DNA from: a virus | Virus record (IMG/VR): IMGVR_UViG_3300045988_014663 | Coordinates: 1 to 5,701 of that record | Strand: one strand, 5' to 3' | Length of the DNA stretch: 5,701 nt | Shown: in pieces, positions 1 to 5,701 of the stretch | Numbering within the stretch: position 1 is the first letter of the stretch | Layout of the letters: every line of letters starts with the position of its first letter | Notes under the pieces: model-generated | The model's database searches: none | Seen by the model: only the letters and a program-made list of their open reading frames with translations | Told to the model about the DNA's origin: nothing | Translations under genes and position numbers: made by a program

Positions 1-55
1 GCCTTTTCTACTGCGTCTTTGGCTTTTTCTCCCGCTTTCGCAAGGCCTGAACCTA
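1..55. repeat. Terminal direct repeat, copy 1 of 2, identical to 5647..5701; indicates a circular genome of 5646 nt
   Basis: A base-by-base comparison shows gccttttctactgcgtctttggctttttctcccgctttcgcaaggcctgaaccta at both ends (55/55). A reading frame runs unbroken across the join. Confidence 0.97.
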
Positions 56-755
56 ACTTGTTAGCTGCGTAGCTGTACTGCTGTGCTTGTTTTGCGCTTG
101 AGGTTGCCAGCTCGCTTGCTGCCTGTTCCCAGCTTTTTGCACTCTTAATTTGCTTTGCGCTGGTGGCCTGTTTTGCTAGCTGTAAGTATTTGTCTGCCAG
201 CTCTGCTGTGTTGTTGCCGTATTCGTACATAGCGCTTACACTTGCAGCCTGTGCGCTCTGCTGGTTATAATGTTGGCTTCCAATGCTTGCAGATGCTCCC
301 GATGGTGCGCTTGTTGCCCCGTTGGTCGCTGCCAGAATAGGATTGATGCCCGCTGCAATCATGTCCTTCACGGTGTCCTGATAGGCTGTTCCGCGCATTT
401 CCTTTTGGAAAGCCCGTTCTGCTGCCGCTTCTGCGCTGTTGTATTTCTTGGCGCTCGCCTGACTTCCAGCGTTTGCGAGGTTGCTAAGTAGTCCGCTCAT
501 CATTTGTAACGCGTTTGCGGTGTTTACACTGCTCTGGTTGCCAAATGTGGTAATGCCTGTTGGTGTGCTGATTTGTGTTGCTCCTATCTGCTGCGGTGCT
601 GTTACACTGCCCGTTGTGCTCTCGCTGCCTGTGCTGCTCTCGCTGCCGGCTCCTTGGCTGTTCTTGGCGCTGCTCTGGTTACTGTTCGTTATGATGCCTG
701 TTAACATGCTCAGTCCTTGCATGAGGTACGGCATAAAGCTTAACAATGTTTCCAT
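1..755 (-). CDS. VP2: Minor capsid / DNA pilot protein VP2, N-terminal 251 codons plus 2 nt. The ORF continues round the circle into 5529..5646, for 290 aa in total.
   Basis: Hand translation from ATG 755..753 gives METLLSFMPYLMQGLSMLTGIITNSNQ..., with no stop before position 1. The frame rejoins at 5646 and ends at TAA 5531..5529. The protein has a hydrophobic N-terminus and an S/G/T/A/Q-rich low-complexity stretch. It also carries AERAFQKEMRGTAYQDTVKDMIAAGINPILA, which matches the AYQ..V.DM..AG.NPIL signature I associate with gokushovirus VP2. In-frame ATGs at 734, 722 and 707 are alternative starts. Confidence 0.85.
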   Translation of the reverse strand, partial: METLLSFMPYLMQGLSMLTGIITNSNQSSAKNSQGAGSESSTGSESTTGSVTAPQQIGATQISTPTGITTFGNQSSVNTANALQMMSGLLSNLANAGSQASAKKYNSAEAAAERAFQKEMRGTAYQDTVKDMIAAGINPILAATNGATSAPSGASASIGSQHYNQQSAQAASVSAMYEYGNNTAELADKYLQLAKQATSAKQIKSAKSWEQAASELATSSAKQAQQYSYAANKLGSGLAKAGEKAKDAVEK

Positions 756-757
756 TC

Positions 758-783
758 AAAAATAGCCCCGCTTTTGCGGGGCT
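758..783 (-). terminator. GC-rich hairpin plus T5 between VP1 and VP2; probably a leaky intrinsic terminator or RNA structure
   Basis: The stem pairs agccccgc (764..771) with gcggggct (776..783) around a tttt loop. On the minus strand it is followed by ATTTTTG (763..757). It starts 10 nt after the VP1 stop and ends 8 nt before the VP2 ATG. Confidence 0.6.
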
Positions 784-784
784 T

Positions 785-790
785 CCTCCT
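785..790 (-). promoter_or_regulatory. Shine-Dalgarno AGGAGG, presumably for VP2, separated from the ATG by the 764..783 hairpin
   Basis: cctcct on the plus strand reads AGGAGG on the minus strand. It lies 29 nt before ATG 755 in linear sequence, but about 9 nt away if the 20-nt hairpin folds. Confidence 0.5.
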
Positions 791-793
791 TTC

Positions 794-2473
794 TTAGATT
801 CTTTCGACGCCGGGAATGCTGTAGATAGGCATCTCGCGGTACCATTCTTCGTCGAAGTAGAAGTCACACAAGAACTGGTGACTTTTTTCGCTCGTCACTG
901 CAATTGTTCGGTCGATGTTCTGCGTTCCTTCCTGAATCCACTCTGCCGAGAGATGCGGCAGTTTATCATAGTCGTCTGCATAGTGCCATGCGTCCAAACT
1001 CGTCTGGTAGTTAGACCGCATTTCTCCCGTTACATAGGATGGCTTGTATCGATAATCCGCCCATGCTTCTTGGTAGCCGAAGATTTCACCATCTTCAGCC
1101 GTGCCCTGTGCATAGATTTCGCGGTTATACACCGGTTGTTCGCCCAAGGCTGCAAGTCTCGGGTCGTAGTAGGTGAATCGCCCGCCACGTGTCCACTTGG
1201 TCGCGAGTCCTTGCTGGTAGCTGTGCTCCACTCGTACCACTGCCAGACCGATGATATAGCCGTATTCGGTCGCTGCATAGTCTACCATCTGTTTGCTGCA
1301 TGTGGTTAGACTGTATGCCGCCGTATTGCCCAGTGCCTGTTTGGTTGTCGGGTCCGTCTGGCTCGTCTGTACGACCTGATTCACATTGATCGCGATGCGC
1401 TGTCCGCCGATGTACTCAGGAATCTGTAGACGGCTGTCCGGACTTGTTACGCCCCACGTACCAGACAGGAACTCACGGTATCGCGTGCCGTTGCGTGCAT
1501 CTGCTTCAAAAATGTGCTGCAAGGCGATTGCCATGCGCAAGTCCTGAATGCTAATTGTGTTTACGTTGCTAAGGTCTGCGAACATATAACCGCCCGCTCC
1601 AACTTCGCCGTCCATTACTCCTGTGAATTGTATTTTTTTATCGTTTGAGTTTCCTGCGTATGCCAATGATCCTGCTCTACTTTGGCTTGCGGCTGTGCCT
1701 GTGCCTAAAACCATTTCTGGACCGCGGCCCGTTTCCAGGCTTGGAATCGTTGTGCCATCGGAATTTCCCAGTTTAATCGGCGCATTGCCCGTCAGGCTGA
1801 TTTCCACTGGGTCAGATTTAAGCGGACTTGGTAAACAGCTGGTGAAGTAGTCGTGGAATTTTCCCGCCTTTGCCGGAAACCGAGCATATAAGCTTGCTTC
1901 GTTTGTGTTTGTTGTTAGGTCTGGTTTGTTTACGTAGTAATCTTTGTTGTCGTTGCCGGGTGTCTGGTCAGTTCCCCCGTCATCGTCTTTTTTATAGCCT
2001 AGCATTAACGGTGCTTCAAGGTTTTCATCTCTGAACCACTCATTGTAGATCATGGCGTAGGCGCGTGCTGGAAGTGCGTTGACCTTGATTGCGTTTTTGA
2101 CTCCGGTCGGCAGTCCGAAGTAGTCGCCAATGCTGCCTTTTACAAGGCCGCTTTTGCCGCCGATTGTGCAAGTCGGCGTGCTGTATTCGGTCTTTTCTGC
2201 CCAATAGTCGGTATCATTTTCGCCGAACATATTTTCCCAGTGTTCCCACAGCAGACGGCACGGAACAAAGAAGAAATAGGTGTCCATGTAGCAGTTATCC
2301 ATGATAGGATAGATAGGTGTGCTCATACGGATGAGGCCGTTCAGGCGTACACGTGCGGTATCACCCGGAAGTACTTCATCACAGTAGATGGGCACTAGGT
2401 CGCCCTCGTTGATGGTCGTCAAGAGCTGGTGACTGCGGTCAAATTTGCTTCGCGGTCGTTCCATCCGCGGCAC
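794..2473 (-). CDS. VP1: Major capsid protein VP1 (Microviridae F-protein family), 559 aa
   Basis: The N-terminus SKFDRSHQLLTTINEGDLVPIYCDEVLPGDTARVRLNGLIRMSTPIYPIMDNCYMDTYFFFVPCRLLWEHWENMFG matches the conserved microvirus capsid N-terminal pattern (G.L.P, EVLPGD, FFFVP.RL.W..W). The length is typical of gokushovirus-like VP1. Codon 2473 is GTG, and the first ATG is at 2464 (MERPRSKF...). No clear SD precedes either start, so translation may be coupled to the VP3 stop at 2490. Confidence 0.95.
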   Translation of the reverse strand: MPRMERPRSKFDRSHQLLTTINEGDLVPIYCDEVLPGDTARVRLNGLIRMSTPIYPIMDNCYMDTYFFFVPCRLLWEHWENMFGENDTDYWAEKTEYSTPTCTIGGKSGLVKGSIGDYFGLPTGVKNAIKVNALPARAYAMIYNEWFRDENLEAPLMLGYKKDDDGGTDQTPGNDNKDYYVNKPDLTTNTNEASLYARFPAKAGKFHDYFTSCLPSPLKSDPVEISLTGNAPIKLGNSDGTTIPSLETGRGPEMVLGTGTAASQSRAGSLAYAGNSNDKKIQFTGVMDGEVGAGGYMFADLSNVNTISIQDLRMAIALQHIFEADARNGTRYREFLSGTWGVTSPDSRLQIPEYIGGQRIAINVNQVVQTSQTDPTTKQALGNTAAYSLTTCSKQMVDYAATEYGYIIGLAVVRVEHSYQQGLATKWTRGGRFTYYDPRLAALGEQPVYNREIYAQGTAEDGEIFGYQEAWADYRYKPSYVTGEMRSNYQTSLDAWHYADDYDKLPHLSAEWIQEGTQNIDRTIAVTSEKSHQFLCDFYFDEEWYREMPIYSIPGVERI

Positions 2474-2489
2474 TTGCGCAAAATGGTTT

Positions 2490-2909
2490 TCACTGTTTCG
2501 GTTCGTTTTCCTTCACCTCTTCCTTTTTTTCTTCCGGCTTCGGCTGTTCGGTCTGCTGCACCTGTTTCAGCTGTTCCAGCGTTTTGGCTGCCGTTTCGGC
2601 CTTTTCGTGCATTGTCATGATGTCTTTTGGCAGATTTTCGAGGTCGGTGCCCTCGGTGTATACCATGCTTTTAGCCTTGATGCTGGTATCTCCAGCTTCC
2701 AGCCGTGCGATTGCGCTTGCAAGGTCGTAGCCTTCGCCGGCTCGCTGGATTTTTTGGTATGTGTTCTCGTCCGGCTGCTCGATGTAGTCGGTTGTGCCAT
2801 TCGGTCGCTTTACCGCTTTCCACGTTGGCGCGGTCATGCTGCCCGGATTGTTTGTCACTCTCTCGGTCGGTAGTCCGTAGTATCTTACCAGTGTATCAGG
2901 ATTTAACAT
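2490..2909 (-). CDS. VP3: Internal scaffolding protein VP3-like, 139 aa
   Basis: ATG 2909 is preceded by GAAGGAGA with 6-nt spacing, and the gene sits immediately upstream of VP1. Its size, the central YQKIQ...DL..I..R...GD segment and the acidic/lysine-rich C-terminal tail resemble gokushovirus VP3. This assignment rests on memory of the family, not on a search. Confidence 0.7.
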   Translation of the reverse strand: MLNPDTLVRYYGLPTERVTNNPGSMTAPTWKAVKRPNGTTDYIEQPDENTYQKIQRAGEGYDLASAIARLEAGDTSIKAKSMVYTEGTDLENLPKDIMTMHEKAETAAKTLEQLKQVQQTEQPKPEEKKEEVKENEPKQ

Positions 2910-3150
2910 TGGCTGTCTCCTTCAGGTCGATGAGCCGTGCGATGTGTTCAGGCATTGCCTCGCTCATGTAGCCGGTTTCGGTGTCGAACTCGCCCAGCTC
3001 CACGAGTGAAATATCTTCAATTTCGCTGGGCTTGCTCTCGTTGGCCTTCCATCGTGCCGTTCTAACTGCCTGTGCTCGGTTGTTCTGCAGAAACGGCTGA
3101 GAATAGCCGTTGGTCAATGCATCGTGGAATGAGTAGAATTTCAGTTTCAT
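2896..3150 (-). CDS. VP5: VP5-like small non-structural protein, 84 aa
   Basis: ATG 3150 is preceded by AAGGAGA. The sequence FYSFHDALTNGYSQPFLQNNRAQAVRTARW...EDISLVELGEFDTETGYM fits the gokushovirus ORF5/VP5 pattern I recall (D.ka..y..PF......A.R.F ... D..L..iGeFD..tG). It overlaps the VP3 start by 14 nt. Confidence 0.65.
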   Translation of the reverse strand: MKLKFYSFHDALTNGYSQPFLQNNRAQAVRTARWKANESKPSEIEDISLVELGEFDTETGYMSEAMPEHIARLIDLKETANVKS

Positions 3151-3161
3151 GTTTTTCTCCT

Positions 3162-3278
3162 TTACTTTTTGTCTTCGCTTGCATTCTTCAGCGCGTGGTA
3201 GATCTCGTCGAGCTTTTCAAGGATTCTCATCATCAGCGCGATCGCTTCCTTGACGTCCTTGACCTTGATCAGTGCCAT
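3162..3278 (-). CDS. Hypothetical 38-aa protein MALIKVKDVKEAIALMMRILEKLDEIYHALKNASEDKK (not in the ORF track)
   Basis: Hand translated. ATG 3278 is preceded by AAAAGAGGTGATTTA, a strong GAGGTGA SD at about 4-5 nt. Its TAA (3164..3162) is embedded in the SD of the next gene (TAAAGGAGA). It looks like an amphipathic helix, and I recognise no homology. Confidence 0.45.
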   Translation of the reverse strand: MALIKVKDVKEAIALMMRILEKLDEIYHALKNASEDKK

Positions 3279-3307
3279 TAAATCACCTCTTTTTTGGTTT
3301 GTGTCGT

Positions 3308-3424
3308 TTACAGCCGGATACCGCCCCGCGATACCTTCGGCCGGACGTTGATGTTTTTTACCCGCTTTGCAGTCTGGGTAAAACGTTTCTGGTCGCCTTG
3401 ACCCGCTCCGCTTCTATGTGCCAT
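3308..3424 (-). CDS. Small basic DNA-binding/packaging protein (gokushovirus ORF8/VP8-like, a functional analogue of phiX174 J), 38 aa (not in the ORF track)
   Basis: Hand translation gives MAHRSGAGQGDQKRFTQTAKRVKNINVRPKVSRGGIRL, with 9 Arg+Lys against 1 acidic residue. The ..KR.F..TA.R....N.......RGGIRL C-terminus matches small basic proteins I recall from gokushovirus-like genomes. The SD AAGGGAG lies 7 nt before ATG 3424. The start overlaps the end of the 71-aa ORF by 11 nt in another frame. Confidence 0.6.
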   Translation of the reverse strand: MAHRSGAGQGDQKRFTQTAKRVKNINVRPKVSRGGIRL

Positions 3425-3629
3425 CGTTATACTCCCTTCTGATTAGCTCTATTTCGATGGTCTTTACAAAACTTTTTATCTGCCAAGTTTCATCTATTAG
3501 CCTTTTTGCGTCTTCGATGTTTGACACTTTTTTAAGCATTTTGTAATTGCCATCAATTTCTTTGTATTTTCGTGTGATTAGTTCTTCCAATGTTTCTTTG
3601 GTCTGGTCTCGTGCATTCCATGCTTTCAT
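3414..3629 (-). CDS. Hypothetical 71-aa protein, charged and helical, with no TM segment
   Basis: The ORF track extends this ORF to 3704, but ATG 3629 has SD AAAGGGGG and lies 2 nt after the peptidase stop (GGGGGTATAACAATG). I therefore prefer MKAWNARDQTKETLEELITRKYKEIDGNYKMLKKVSNIEDAKRLIDETWQIKSFVKTIEIELIRREYNDGT. I recognise no family. Confidence 0.6.
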   Translation of the reverse strand: MKAWNARDQTKETLEELITRKYKEIDGNYKMLKKVSNIEDAKRLIDETWQIKSFVKTIEIELIRREYNDGT

Positions 3630-3631
3630 TG

Positions 3632-4021
3632 TTATACCCCCTTTCTGTATTTGCTGTTGCGCGTGTCGATATGTACCCATGTATCGTATACGATTATGCC
3701 GCATTCATCTGGAATGATTTTATTCAGTTTGTTGGCAATTTCTTTTGCGGTCATGCCATTAATCCGGATGTCTGCTGCCATTCCTCGCATGTGGTATGAG
3801 TACTTTGCACCGCCTACCGCTTTATTCCTTGCCGGTGTCCGGTATCCACTGTTGATGATTACAGGCTTTCCGACATGGTTTCTGAGGATGTCTAGGATTG
3901 ATACTAGGTAGCTGTCTATAAAAACTACCTGTGAGCCGTCTTTGCAAGCGAATTCTCGCACTTTGAAGTGTTGTCCTACTTTTTCGTTTGCGTCTGTATC
4001 CATGATATAGCTTTTAATCAT
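3632..4021 (-). CDS. Zinc D,D- or L,D-peptidase of the M15 family (Peptidase_M15_3/M15A-like), a putative peptidoglycan hydrolase, 129 aa
   Basis: Recognised motifs are FKVREFACKDG, INSGYRTPARNKAVGGAKYSYHMRGMAADI (SxHxxGxAxD, providing His and Asp Zn ligands) and WVHIDTR (the third His). The track ORF starts at TTG 4048. ATG 4021, preceded by GGGAGA about 9 nt upstream, is the more likely start. There is no signal peptide or TM segment. Confidence 0.88.
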   Translation of the reverse strand: MIKSYIMDTDANEKVGQHFKVREFACKDGSQVVFIDSYLVSILDILRNHVGKPVIINSGYRTPARNKAVGGAKYSYHMRGMAADIRINGMTAKEIANKLNKIIPDECGIIVYDTWVHIDTRNSKYRKGV

Positions 4022-4078
4022 TTTTTGTTTCTCCCATTCTTTTTTCAAGGTTCTTGAGTTTCGCTGCTTCTTGCCCTT

Positions 4079-4106
4079 ATCTTATCATGTTTTTGATTGT
4101 TGTCAA
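4079..4106 (-). promoter_or_regulatory. Putative sigma70-type promoter driving the peptidase and downstream genes
   Basis: On the minus strand there is a perfect -35 TTGACA (4106..4101). A 16-nt spacer ends in TGA, giving an extended -10 TGn, followed by -10 TAAGAT (4084..4079). An A8 tract (4114..4107) sits directly upstream, like an UP element. This is a prediction from consensus only. Confidence 0.45.
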
Positions 4107-4121
4107 TTTTTTTTGGTTTGA

Positions 4122-4139
4122 AAGGCGCTTTAGCGCCTT
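4122..4139. other. 7-bp GC-rich hairpin in the Rep-peptidase intergenic region
   Basis: aaggcgc (4122..4128) pairs with gcgcctt (4133..4139) around a ttta loop. On the coding strand it is followed by UCAAACC A8 rather than a U-run, so it is not a canonical terminator. Its function is unknown. Confidence 0.4.
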
Positions 4140-4200
4140 GCCGTGTGGAGCGCATGCGGAACTCGGCTTAATAAATTTTTCCTTTTTAGCGCTGTGCGCG

Positions 4201-5205
4201 TTATGTTTTCGGTTCACGCCACTTTTGCTTTAGCTTGTCCTTTTCTTTCTGAATGTTGAGATAGGTTTCGTAATCTACGCTTGTGTTCTGTTCGAGATTG
4301 ACCAAACTTTGTATTGCGCTGCGTCTGCGTCTGGCTCTAACCTCTCTCAGCTCGTCAGAATGTGCCTTAAAATAGCTTTCTGTGTCTTGGCTGGTATCTT
4401 TATCTAGAATCTTATCAAAATAGCGTGGAGGCCTTTTCTCGCGTCCTCCTGAGCATATGATGCTATCTGTTTTTAAGATTTCATCTTTGTGTTCGTTTAG
4501 ATATTTTTCGCCGATACCTTTCGACATGATCCTGAACTCTGGTTCTCTGCCTTCCATCCAGTATTTTGCCGCTTGCTCTGCACCTATGGCTTTTTTGTTG
4601 ACGTACTGTGCTACATATGCGTAGCTACCCGGTTGTGCTGGTGAAAAGTCTATCATGCCTTTGCCCCAGATTTTTTCTAGCCACTCGCTTTTAAAATAGC
4701 TGTTGCCTTTTTGGTTTTTGTACCATTGTGCATCCGGTGGCTTTAGTCCAAATACTATCGCATGGTAGTGTGGTCTTTTTGTTCTGTCGCCGTATTCGGC
4801 TGCTAGGAAGTATTTTATTGGTTTCTTGTACGCTTTCCGTAGCCGTTTTATAAATAGCTGCACGTCTCGTTTGCTTACTGTCTGGCTTTGAATGCTTCTG
4901 TAGCCTTTGAGAATCTCGCCGTATGGGACATGATCATCGTCATAAGTCAGCGTTAGAAAAATTACATCGTCCCATTCTTTGGCTTCTAGCTCTATTCTAG
5001 TTGCCCATTGGTCAGCTATCTGTTTTCGACAGTATTCGCATTTACCGCATGGTAGCAATGCGAATTTTCCTTTTTTGACTCCGTCCATGATGTCCGTTTG
5101 TAGTCCTTGCTTTGATAGGTTCTCCAGACTTCCCCACAGTTTTGGTTTTTTCGTGTCCATCTGAAATATTAATGGTTTTGTACATGGCATTTTTGTTACC
5201 GGCAC
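4201..5205 (-). CDS. VP4: Rolling-circle replication initiator VP4 (HUH endonuclease, phiX174 gpA-like), 334 aa from GTG 5205 or 329 aa from ATG 5190
   Basis: RCR motif 1 is VIFLTLTYDD, the HUH motif is RPHYHAIVFG, and the two-tyrosine motif 3 is YAYVAQYVNKK. An N-terminal Cys cluster (LPCGKCEYCR) is typical of microvirus Rep. GTG 5205 has AAGGAAG 5 nt upstream, while ATG 5190 has no SD. Confidence 0.92.
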   Translation of the reverse strand: MPVTKMPCTKPLIFQMDTKKPKLWGSLENLSKQGLQTDIMDGVKKGKFALLPCGKCEYCRKQIADQWATRIELEAKEWDDVIFLTLTYDDDHVPYGEILKGYRSIQSQTVSKRDVQLFIKRLRKAYKKPIKYFLAAEYGDRTKRPHYHAIVFGLKPPDAQWYKNQKGNSYFKSEWLEKIWGKGMIDFSPAQPGSYAYVAQYVNKKAIGAEQAAKYWMEGREPEFRIMSKGIGEKYLNEHKDEILKTDSIICSGGREKRPPRYFDKILDKDTSQDTESYFKAHSDELREVRARRRRSAIQSLVNLEQNTSVDYETYLNIQKEKDKLKQKWREPKT

Positions 5206-5232
5206 AAGCTTCCTTGTCTATCTTGTGCCGGT
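5198..5232 (-). promoter_or_regulatory. Perfect 11-bp inverted repeat with a 13-nt loop over the Rep translation start
   Basis: accggcacaag (5198..5208) is the reverse complement of cttgtgccggt (5222..5232). On the coding strand the loop contains the SD AAGGAAG (5215..5209), and the 3' arm contains GTG 5205..5203. Confidence 0.6.
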
Positions 5233-5266
5233 TGACACCTCGCTTTCTTTATATATTAACTTGTTG

Positions 5267-5281
5267 TAGTAGTAGTAGTAG
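5267..5281. repeat. (TAG)5 trinucleotide tract, (CTA)5 on the coding strand
   Basis: tagtagtagtagtag can be read directly and is flanked by ttgttg and tggtgttga, so the period-3 pattern extends further in degenerate form. Confidence 0.9.
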
Positions 5282-5284
5282 TGG

Positions 5285-5451
5285 TGTTGAAAGTGTTGAA
5301 AACTCGTTTTTTTAACGTTACTACGTTTATTTATTGCTTTTTTGCCTGTTGAAAACTTTGTTGAAAACTTGTTGAATTGTTGAATGTTCGTCATAATGAC
5401 GAATTTCTTTGTGCAACTTGTTGTTGAAAACCTGTTGAAAGTGTTGAAAAC
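5285..5451. repeat. Array of nine direct GTTGAA(A/T) iterons, consensus TGTTGAAAAC (GTTTTCAACA on the coding strand), in three clusters
   Basis: The copies lie at 5285..5293, 5294..5303, 5347..5356, 5359..5368, 5371..5377, 5378..5385, 5422..5431, 5433..5441 and 5442..5451. All share one orientation and are spaced 8-12 nt within clusters. An exact 21-nt duplicate tgttgaaagtgttgaaaactc occurs at 5285..5305 and 5433..5453. AACTTGTTG recurs at 5258, 5366 and 5415. An AT-rich spacer (5306..5346) separates clusters 1 and 2. Confidence 0.85.
5387..5403. other. Small hairpin between iteron clusters 2 and 3; candidate ori stem-loop
   Basis: ttcgtc (5387..5392) pairs with gacgaa (5398..5403) around the AT-only loop ataat. 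The stem is short at 6 bp, so this feature alone is weak. Confidence 0.4.
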
Positions 5452-5493
5452 TCAAGTTTTCCACATTCTCTATTTTTTGGATTATTGTTACTG

Positions 5494-5520
5494 AAAAAGG
5501 GGGATGTTTTACCATCCCCC
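5494..5520 (-). terminator. Rho-independent terminator after VP2
   Basis: On the coding strand GGGGGATG-GTAAAA-CATCCCCC forms an 8-bp stem (5520..5513 with 5506..5499). It is followed by TTTTT (5498..5494) and begins 8 nt after the VP2 stop. Confidence 0.7.
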
Positions 5521-5528
5521 TTCCTTTC

Positions 5529-5701
5529 TTAGTCTCCTGTGTATGGTTCTCCATGTTTGAACCCATCAATCAGTTTGCGCCTTCTTGCTGTCTTGTTGAT
5601 AGTATCTTCGACTACTTTGTCAATGCCTTCTTTGGTTGCTTTACCAGCCTTTTCTACTGCGTCTTTGGCTTTTTCTCCCGCTTTCGCAAGGCCTGAACCT
5701 A
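5529..5701 (-). CDS. VP2: VP2 C-terminal portion; 5647..5701 duplicates 1..55, so the unique part is 5529..5646
   Basis: The frame from 1..755 continues as ...VEKAGKATKEGIDKVVEDTINKTARRRKLIDGFKHGEPYTGD and ends at TAA 5531..5529. Confidence 0.85.
   Translation of the reverse strand, partial: GSGLAKAGEKAKDAVEKAGKATKEGIDKVVEDTINKTARRRKLIDGFKHGEPYTGD
5647..5701. repeat. Terminal direct repeat, copy 2 of 2, identical to 1..55
   Basis: 55/55 identity to the window start. Confidence 0.97.

Follow-up and report, generated by a model that had tools for sequence, protein, structure and literature searches.

A mobile cassette with the architecture of a bacterial DnaA-trio unwinding module in gokushovirus genomes

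What is the role of a dense array of direct repeats placed next to the replication gene of a small single-stranded DNA phage, and which protein is likely to bind it? We addressed this question for the IMG/VR record IMGVR_UViG_3300045988_014663, analyzed over its whole stretch of 5701 nt (positions 1 to 5701, hereafter the window). Because its ends (1-55 and 5647-5701) form an exact 55-nt terminal direct repeat, the window represents a complete circular gokushovirus genome with a true length of 5646 nt. Nine copies of GTTGAAW, all on the plus strand, start at positions 5286, 5295, 5348, 5360, 5371, 5379, 5423, 5434 and 5443, and none is found elsewhere in the 5701 nt; in shuffled sequences, the motif occurred 1.78 times on average and 6 times at most, with none of 200 shuffles reaching nine. 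The array sits in the largest non-coding stretch of the genome (5191-5528), between the stop of VP2 (5529) and the ATG of VP4 (5190), i.e., directly upstream of the start of the phage replication protein (Rep), the minus strand carrying all genes. A first-pass annotation had proposed that the repeats, flanking an AT-rich tract and a hairpin, form a replication origin bound by VP4. A conserved origin-type protein-binding array is retained here as a candidate, without VP4 as its binder. Indeed, the array belongs to a portable cassette of ~220 nt which, as we propose with moderate confidence, reproduces the unwinding module of Firmicutes-type chromosomal origins, at which host DnaA would open AT-rich DNA on the replicative form.

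The cassette covers ~224 nt of the plus strand (5250-5473, 70% A+T), its approximate ends being drawn from the comparison of the window with the relative L261, and a length of ~215-225 nt is also found between the swapped alleles of two pairs of related genomes (L008/L015 and L101/L018). On its lower-numbered side lies an AT-rich tract (5244-5268, 84% A+T), which ties for the highest A+T content of any 25-nt window in the genome (one of three) and is a candidate DNA-unwinding element. It is followed on the plus strand by a DnaA-trio array, 5'-(TAG)5-3' or 3'-GAT-5' repeats (5267-5281), which is directly visible in the sequence and abuts the first two repeats of the array, with a short G-rich spacer, TGG (5282-5284, plus strand), in between. 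These first two repeats constitute a putative tandem DnaA-box pair, TGTTGAAAG TGTTGAAAA (5285-5302, plus strand), oriented towards the trios, the distal box being 12 bp from them. Within the AT-rich tract, the element TAACTTGTTG, which abuts the trios, is more than 90% conserved among microvirus cassettes and resembles the box junction (GAAAACTTGTTGAA).

Conservation was assessed from an exact-pattern scan of viral contigs, which returned 120 stretches, 77 of them with microvirus genes (the other 43 include larger contigs, with similar arrays). Together with five GenBank loci and the window, these 77 make up 83 microvirus genomes, from which 80 cassettes were aligned and 65 were scored for boxes and spacer. 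The trio columns are among the best conserved of the 80-cassette alignment (at least 90%), as is a second cluster of four boxes, TGTTGAAAA, TGTTGAAAA, TGTTGAATT and TGTTGAATG (5347-5386, plus strand; start-to-start distances of 12, 11 and 8 nt; at least 90% conserved). A third cluster of three boxes, TGTTGAAAA, TGTTGAAAG and TGTTGAAAA (5422-5450, plus strand), is conserved as well, most relatives having four boxes here. Two small hairpins lie between the clusters. The first, AACGT-TACT-ACGTT (5314-5327), is predicted in the centroid fold of both strands within the spacer that follows the box pair, and relatives carry the compensatory variants GCGT..ACGC and ACGC..GCGT. The second, the palindrome TTCGTCAT-A-ATGACGAA (5387-5403, loop of 1-3 nt), has arms conserved in about half of the cassettes, the others having AACAC..GTGTT or ACTTTA..TAAAGT and some no hairpin, and no compensatory changes were seen within its main type. 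Finally, the genome has a single match to TTWTNCACA, an inverted canonical DnaA box, TTTTCCACA (5457-5465, plus strand). An inverted repeat (5437-5452/5455-5470, 81% complementary) allows this box to pair with the last direct one, and more than half of the 80 aligned cassettes are gapped at the site of the inverted box.

The features described by the first-pass annotation were found as reported, including an exact 21-nt duplication, TGTTGAAAGTGTTGAAAACTC (5285-5305 and 5433-5453), three exact copies of AACTTGTTG (5258, 5366 and 5415), the hairpin arms TTCGTCAT/ATGACGAA (5387-5394 and 5396-5403) and the AT-richness of 5306-5346 (73% A+T vs 53% for the genome). The weight given to them has changed: the 5306-5346 tract and the 5387-5403 hairpin, previously taken for key parts, are secondary spacers, the hairpin being missing or replaced in part of the family, and it is the (TAG)5 trios and the AT-rich DNA at 5244-5268 that are informative. 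Neither of these, nor the inverted canonical box, had been noticed. All nine repeats read TGTTGAAWN, one base off the relaxed reverse-complement DnaA box TGTGNAWAA. Several other identities were considered. A coding repeat was rejected, the spacings of 9, 12, 11, 8, 11 and 9 nt not being multiples of 3 and the open reading frames crossing the array being only short mechanical ones. Matches to Rfam 15 in 5100-5701 were all far under the gathering scores, and a distant blastn search of PLSDB gave no plasmid homologue. A strongly folded single-stranded element was also discarded, given that the z-score of about -5.8 is due to the flanking VP2 terminator and the hairpin upstream of VP4, the box arrays themselves being unpaired.

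In bacterial oriC, the basal unwinding system (BUS) combines a DnaA-box pair, a GC spacer, DnaA-trios and AT-rich DNA, as described for B. subtilis incC and C. difficile oriC2 (Richardson 2016/2019; PMC8287927; PMC7561715). Its published rules ask for three or more NAN trios with a 3'-GAT-5' consensus, separated from the better box by no more than 16 bp (13 being the usual value). The better box may deviate from the 9-bp consensus at up to two positions and can be paired in tandem with a weaker one, for which up to four mismatches are tolerated (PMC8287927). In the window, the distal box TGTTGAAAA (5294-5302) has two mismatches to TGTGGATAA and TGTTGAAAG (5285-5293) has three. Five TAG trios are present on the same strand as TGTTGAAAA, as in C. 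difficile and in the host origins described below, the spacer (TGG plus the proximal box) amounts to 12 bp, and 13 bp are found in 45 of the 65 scored cassettes. Beyond the trios comes AT-rich DNA (5244-5268). In 37 of the 65 scored relatives, the trio-proximal box is GTGGAAAA, 26 of these boxes being the fully canonical TGTGGAAAA, and the G-rich spacer of relatives has 4 nt (GGGC, GCAA, AGGT), that of hosts being GGGG(T). A search of the window for the combined pattern (TAG)3-N2-8-GTKGAAA-N1-3-GTKGAWA gave a single locus, as two overlapping register matches, with 0 expected.

In C. difficile oriC2, the order is box, GC-cluster, CTA-repeat and unwinding element, with 5'-CACC-CTACTACTATTACTACTA-3' leading into the latter (PMC7561715). 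The cassette is like these bacterial systems in the order of the elements, their orientation, the 3'-GAT-5' trios, the tandem boxes and the AT-rich DNA beyond. It differs by its setting on a 5.6-kb single-stranded DNA phage genome, by its compact and mobile form of ~220 nt and by the TGTTGAAAA box variant. Location next to dnaA and dnaN is another feature of the BUS in chromosomes, whereas the phage element lies between VP2 and VP4. It therefore looks derived from an oriC module, though it is not a chromosomal origin.

Is this box variant used in chromosomal origins? One genome per bacterial species was scanned for three tandem GTTGAAA, which yielded at least 120 loci, selected for the motif by construction. 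Among the matches listed, the array adjoins dnaA at five loci, namely three Oscillospiraceae metagenome-assembled genomes (L130, L170 and L241), a Ruminococcus sp. (L199) and a Negativibacillus sp. (L212), dnaA and dnaN being confirmed by Pfam and tblastn. On the other side of the array is a full dnaN in L170, L212 and L241 and a partial dnaN match in L199, while L130 stops at the contig edge. Read from the dnaN side, L130, L170 and L241 display AT-rich DNA, (TAG)4-5, GGGGT and GTTGAAAc-tGT(T/G)GAAAA, then more box clusters, and L199 has the same layout with GGTAT replacing GGGGT. The layout AT-rich/(TAG)4-5/GGGGT/GTTGAAAcTGTTGAAAA thus stands between dnaA and dnaN in four Oscillospiraceae/Ruminococcus genomes. 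That of Negativibacillus, the fifth, is looser, with trios but only three direct boxes, ~100 nt away, and no match to the 80-cassette profile. This profile aligns collinearly, from the trios to the last box cluster, with L170 (E=1e-15), L199 (7e-14), L241 (5e-12) and L130 (3e-9), all of them within the top five scores of the 120 loci listed. Because the scan itself selected for the motif, these E-values deserve less weight than the collinear coverage and the dnaA context. The position of the 5244-5268 tract also matches that of the AT-rich DNA beyond the trios in the host oriCs.

The fifth of these best-scoring loci is a similar trio-plus-box module (L157, 7197-7377; nhmmer E=1e-9) on a 7.9-kb contig labelled Anaerolineae; no dnaA was found in the stretch examined, and the contig may be a mobile element or mis-binned. 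In L189 (6680-6740), a GTTGAAA repeat lies, as judged by eye, inside a coding sequence and encodes roughly a VETVEN-type peptide repeat; a bare motif search therefore also catches unrelated coding repeats. No microvirus prophage was found among the genome matches listed.

The variant box is concentrated in the host origins. In L241, the 869-nt dnaA-dnaN region (1628-2496) contains 23 GTTGAAA and no canonical TTWTNCACA, vs 2 GTTGAAA in the other 3022 nt, so that this origin appears wholly reliant on the variant; in L199, 26 copies are found in the 1275-nt dnaA-dnaN region vs 8 in the other 6726 nt. Moreover, GTTGAAA and the canonical GTGGAAA interchange at equivalent positions in hosts and phages, which supports a single binder, DnaA. 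In the C-termini of the host DnaAs (L130, L170, L199 and L212), the recognition helix reads RDHST(V/I)VY(A/S), vs RDHTTVIHA in B. subtilis and Aquifex. Residues T435 and H439 of the E. coli protein make contacts with box bases, and the recognition-helix substitutions may be behind the TGTTGAAAA variant. Host origins (L130, L170, L199 and L241) and phage cassettes have in common the box variant, (TAG)4-5, the G-rich spacer and collinearity over ~175-195 nt. The host regions are nevertheless longer (0.4-1.3 kb), mix both box orientations, contain more canonical boxes and lack TAACTTGTTG and phage-type hairpins; the likeness is one of motif and architecture, not near-identity.

Regarding the phages, the first-pass annotation had made its proposal depend on conservation in relatives, and motif and spacing are kept in all 49 full-length relatives retrieved by similarity of the capsid protein VP1. 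Each carries one cassette, antisense in 48 and sense in L261, and none was found in five distant gokushoviruses (VP1 31-34% identical). In the window's clade (VP4 identity of 75% or more), the VP2-VP4 interval holds the cassette in 30 of 30 genomes, with the boxes on the non-coding strand. In a second clade (VP4 32-46% and VP1 ~38-48% identical), it comes after VP4, 48 times in sense and 4 times in antisense orientation. Between these clades, whose VP1 and VP4 proteins are ~40% identical, the cassette DNA is 72-90% identical. Likewise, a megablast search of GenBank phages gave two records that match this region only, MG945447 (5249-5449, 81%) and KT264791 (5347-5449, 90%), the genes of both having no detectable DNA similarity to the window. 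Both of these genomes carry the element downstream of VP4, and in one it is inverted with respect to the genes.

The genome L261 is decisive for the mobility of the cassette: its VP4 is 96% identical to that of the window and its VP2-VP4 spacer is intact but devoid of the cassette, a cassette of the second-clade type being found downstream of VP4. The element is also flipped between close relatives, L101/L018 (92% identical genome-wide) and L008/L015 (88%). Identity is lower in the flipped cassettes than in their flanks (79% vs 93%, 76% vs 87%), which points to exchange rather than mere inversion; a simple site-specific inversion switch was rejected in favor of allele replacement. Long alternating purine-pyrimidine G+C-rich palindromes (GCGCGCACGCGCG and similar) adjoin the cassette in the second clade, as in L004 (4700-4790), L005 (3690-3740) and the cassette flanks of L018/L101, and are also found in L003 (2548-2585), and the opposite side of the cassette in the second clade starts with ACGCGCAC, so that short inverted repeats bracket the element. 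They may be recombination or cruciform/Z-DNA sites for its exchange. Palindromes of the GCGCGCACGCGCG type are absent from the window.

The full module is not limited to microviruses. It was found in two other contigs, L060 (1787-1978, nhmmer E=3e-17) and L084 (2029-2308, E=2e-12), the former being a 39-kb contig in which siphovirus tail genes adjoin the module; VP4 had no match in the fetched stretch of contigs of this type. The cassette hence appears to be shared horizontally among unrelated Oscillospiraceae phages, both microviruses and siphoviruses. Neighboring replication genes were sought as a functional clue in the larger phages and gave none, the neighbors being tail genes in L060 and an integrase in L016. 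Other large viral contigs (L054, L100, L110; L009, L016, L050, L067) have GTTGAAAAC arrays without trios, with GGGGGTTAGTTTTT repeats beside the array in one group and a tyrosine integrase gene just downstream of the array in the other. The cassette is also present in 35 microvirus records of GenBank, obtained from the gut of human, pig, mink, raccoon, monkey and dog; for this element, 31 of them have no annotated feature and 4 only 'similar to hypothetical protein'.

How might such a cassette act? Host DnaA-ATP would bind the boxes through its domain IV on the double-stranded replicative form and oligomerize directionally onto the TAG strand of the trios, upon which the AT-rich DNA at 5244-5268 would melt. 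Helicase and replisome of the host could next be loaded onto the opened DNA, and the host machinery would replicate or maintain the replicative form, alongside VP4 rolling-circle replication or feeding into it. Possible outlets are theta-type amplification or maintenance of the replicative form, an aid to VP4 nicking, and priming. DnaA binding, unwinding and this downstream use are steps that we infer from the comparisons above, several features of which bear on them. The motif is unchanged across Reps 32-100% identical, in Rep-less phages and in chromosomal origins, and is thus very unlikely to be a VP4 iteron; by analogy with bacterial origins, the host protein expected to bind exactly this architecture is DnaA. 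The strong conservation of the trios, of the 12-13-bp spacing and of the AT-rich neighbor argues for unwinding over mere DnaA titration. That the cassette is found in either orientation and at more than one position speaks for a role on the double-stranded replicative form, and speaks against a strand-specific signal on single-stranded DNA, a nick site or a VP4 operator.

Several points weigh against a DnaA-dependent origin. The phage keeps an intact HUH Rep with its HYH and YVAQYVNK motifs, and a second initiation route is not obviously needed. The link to hosts consists of five origin regions out of 120 motif-selected matches listed, and it is from the position of the boxes in these regions that DnaA is deduced as the probable binder. 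TGTTGAAAA departs from the universal box at the usually conserved C6, and its function as a DnaA box in Oscillospiraceae is itself something that we infer. The G-rich spacer is merely TGG in this genome, and the microvirus-specific, conserved TAACTTGTTG and the two small hairpins have no place in the DnaA model. Besides, a box cluster could act solely as a DnaA sink.

This last possibility, which we judge unlikely, is the rival that fares best. The cassette would bind host DnaA and start no replication, its multicopy boxes titrating DnaA and thereby blocking host initiation or coupling phage expression to DnaA levels. Extra DnaA-box clusters do perturb initiation, as exemplified by E. coli datA and by B. 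subtilis box clusters, and the window has ten boxes in ~180 nt; the occurrence of the cassette in either orientation and at two positions is what a sink would allow, and box clusters without trios exist in the phage contigs L054, L100 and L110. However, a sink needs neither trios nor an adjacent AT-rich tract, which are among the best-conserved columns, and a pure sink would have no need for a trio-to-box spacing held at 12-13 bp.

A role in complementary-strand synthesis appears less likely still. Gokushoviruses must have a single-strand origin, none being defined so far, and the cassette or its hairpins could recruit the host primosome on the incoming single-stranded DNA, e.g., by means of a DnaA box carried by a hairpin stem, similar to the 'A site' of the ABC-primosome. 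The pairing of the last direct box with the inverted canonical box would suit this scheme, but more than half of the aligned cassettes are gapped at the inverted box. Similarly, small hairpins lie at fixed places between the box clusters and that at 5314-5327 exhibits compensatory changes, while that at 5387-5403 is not universal and the box arrays, all direct repeats, are unpaired in single-stranded folds. The cassette is furthermore found in both orientations relative to the genes, and the composition of the coding strand is the same in both orientation groups, with no sign of a differing packaged strand, a comparison that a coding-tied skew cannot settle.

The model of the first-pass annotation, in which the cassette is a rolling-circle origin with VP4 iterons and a nick site in or near it, has become very improbable. 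Rep-specific iterons normally co-vary with their own Rep. Here the same boxes accompany VP4s 32-100% identical: they are identical alongside VP4s only 32-46% identical, recur both in chromosomal origins of hosts and in phage contigs whose fetched stretch gave no VP4 match, and the cassette flips and moves without change in VP4. Where a conserved hairpin with a nick site in its loop would be expected, part of the family has unrelated stems in place of the 5387-5403 element, or none at all. A phiX-type nick site was rejected as well, CTTGATA being absent from both strands of the genome. What remains in favor of VP4 is the location of the array directly upstream of its gene in this genome, the phiX-like catalytic motifs of the protein, the microvirus-cassette-specific and more than 90% conserved TAACTTGTTG, and the hexamer AACTTG (5258-5263), beside the tract to be melted, which is shared with the core of the phiX174 origin. 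Least probable of all, an operator or promoter for VP4 or its neighbors, bound by a host or phage regulator, would agree with the intergenic position just upstream of VP4 in the window's clade and with the fact that DnaA itself is a transcription factor, but it is disfavored by L261, which keeps a 96% identical VP4 and an intact 5' region with the cassette downstream instead, by the location of second-clade cassettes downstream of VP4, mostly in the opposite orientation, and by the lack of any sigma-70-like promoter found in 5100-5701.

Returning to initiation by host DnaA, a broader scheme can be put forward only tentatively, and we regard it as possible rather than probable: the phage would use two modes, VP4 rolling circle and host-DnaA initiation at a captured origin cassette, with the double-stranded form replicating or persisting as a plasmid-like, host-timed DnaA-dependent minichromosome. 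More speculatively, DnaA melting beside the trios might expose TAACTTGTTG as the VP4 nick site, the orientation of the cassette then deciding which strand is packaged. Strand composition was considered as an indicator of the packaged strand and set aside: the A>T skew of the coding strand is the same in both cassette orientations and, being possibly tied to coding, makes this comparison uninformative.

Compared with other replicons, the cassette resembles the origins of P1 (oriR), pSC101, RK2 (oriV) and F in belonging to a mobile replicon and in having DnaA boxes near an AT-rich region. In those origins, a few DnaA boxes accompany iterons for the cognate Rep, whereas no separate Rep iterons are seen in the cassette, the whole module being chromosomal in type; we know of no report of a trio-type unwinding module in them. 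With circular Rep-encoding single-stranded (CRESS) DNA viruses and rolling-circle plasmids, the window shares direct repeats near a hairpin, upstream of an HUH Rep gene. Its repeats, unlike theirs, do not co-vary with Rep, and its hairpin, absent from part of the family, shows no conserved loop of the nonanucleotide type. In phiX174, the origin is a 30-nt site within gene A whose core, CAACTTG^ATA, is recognized by protein A; AACTTG (5258-5263) is all that it has in common with the cassette, which is intergenic and ~220 nt long.

The prevalence of TGTTGAAAA in the dnaA-dnaN regions of Oscillospiraceae and Ruminococcus points to Gram-positive gut Clostridia of this type as likely hosts of these phages and as the likely source of the cassette. 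This agrees with CRISPR spacers that tie a human-gut gokushovirus-like clade to Firmicutes (bioRxiv 10.1101/2020.09.04.282665), and departs from the existing record, in which Gram-positive hosts of microviruses are almost absent (PMC9239249). A full-text literature search found no paper linking Microviridae with DnaA boxes, and, judged by titles and abstracts, none of the papers found on DnaA-trios plus bacteriophages concerns a phage-borne trio module. What would be new is hence the predicted occurrence of a chromosomal-type DnaA unwinding module, itself of a known kind, as a mobile cassette of single-stranded DNA phages. To our knowledge, the origins of gokushoviruses are undefined and their human-gut hosts largely unknown. 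The cassette provides a concrete cis-element, testable for DnaA binding and unwinding by published methods, as well as a sequence-based pointer to Oscillospiraceae/Ruminococcus hosts for at least two abundant gut gokushovirus clades. It also flags TGTTGAAAA as a likely DnaA box of a major gut bacterial family and would improve the annotation of dozens of public microvirus genomes. If the proposal is true, a virus would carry the host chromosome's own unwinding module, beyond stray DnaA boxes.

The remainder of the genome is that of a gokushovirus, all of its genes being encoded on the minus strand. VP4/Rep (5190->4201) starts with the ATG at 5190, matches Pfam REP_ORF2-G2P and has visible HYH and YVAQYVNK motifs. 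It is followed by Pfam matches to an M15 peptidase (4048->3632), a VP5-like protein (3150->2896), a scaffold-like protein (2909->2490, under the curated cut-off) and VP1 (2473->794, Phage_F, E=5e-150). VP2, which runs from 755 through the junction to its stop at 5529, has no Pfam match and was assigned by its position and by GenBank relatives. From high to low coordinates, the 5191-5528 stretch contains the VP2 terminator hairpin, the repeat array, the AT-rich tract and a hairpin preceding VP4. The first of these (5522-5497, minus strand) consists of a G+C-rich 10-bp stem and then a T-run, immediately beyond the VP2 stop, and resembles an intrinsic terminator, which would end the late operon ahead of the cassette.

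Just 5' of the VP4 ATG, a perfect 11-bp hairpin (5198-5232, minus strand) has a conserved loop, ATAGACAAGGAAG, and GAGGTG is conserved 5 nt upstream of its stem. Relatives show three types of compensatory changes in this stem, CGGCAC/GTGCCG, TGGCGC/GCGCCA and TGGCCC/GGGCCA. As the hairpin stays with VP4 in L261, in which the cassette has moved, it is probably an element of the VP4 5' region that may, for example, bring a Shine-Dalgarno sequence near the ATG; it is also a candidate Rep-related site. The M15 peptidase (3632-4048), for its part, has up to 92% protein identity with those of L018, L026, L076, L089 and L123, whose VP1 and VP4 are only ~40% identical to those of the window, and this pattern indicates a likely exchange of modules among these phages. 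If it is a true endolysin, it would fit a Gram-positive host. Finally, the coding strand is strongly A-rich, with an AT skew of about +0.5 at 4-fold sites (over the whole genome and in VP1 of the 83 genomes), whatever the cassette orientation, in contrast to the T-rich viral strand of phiX174.

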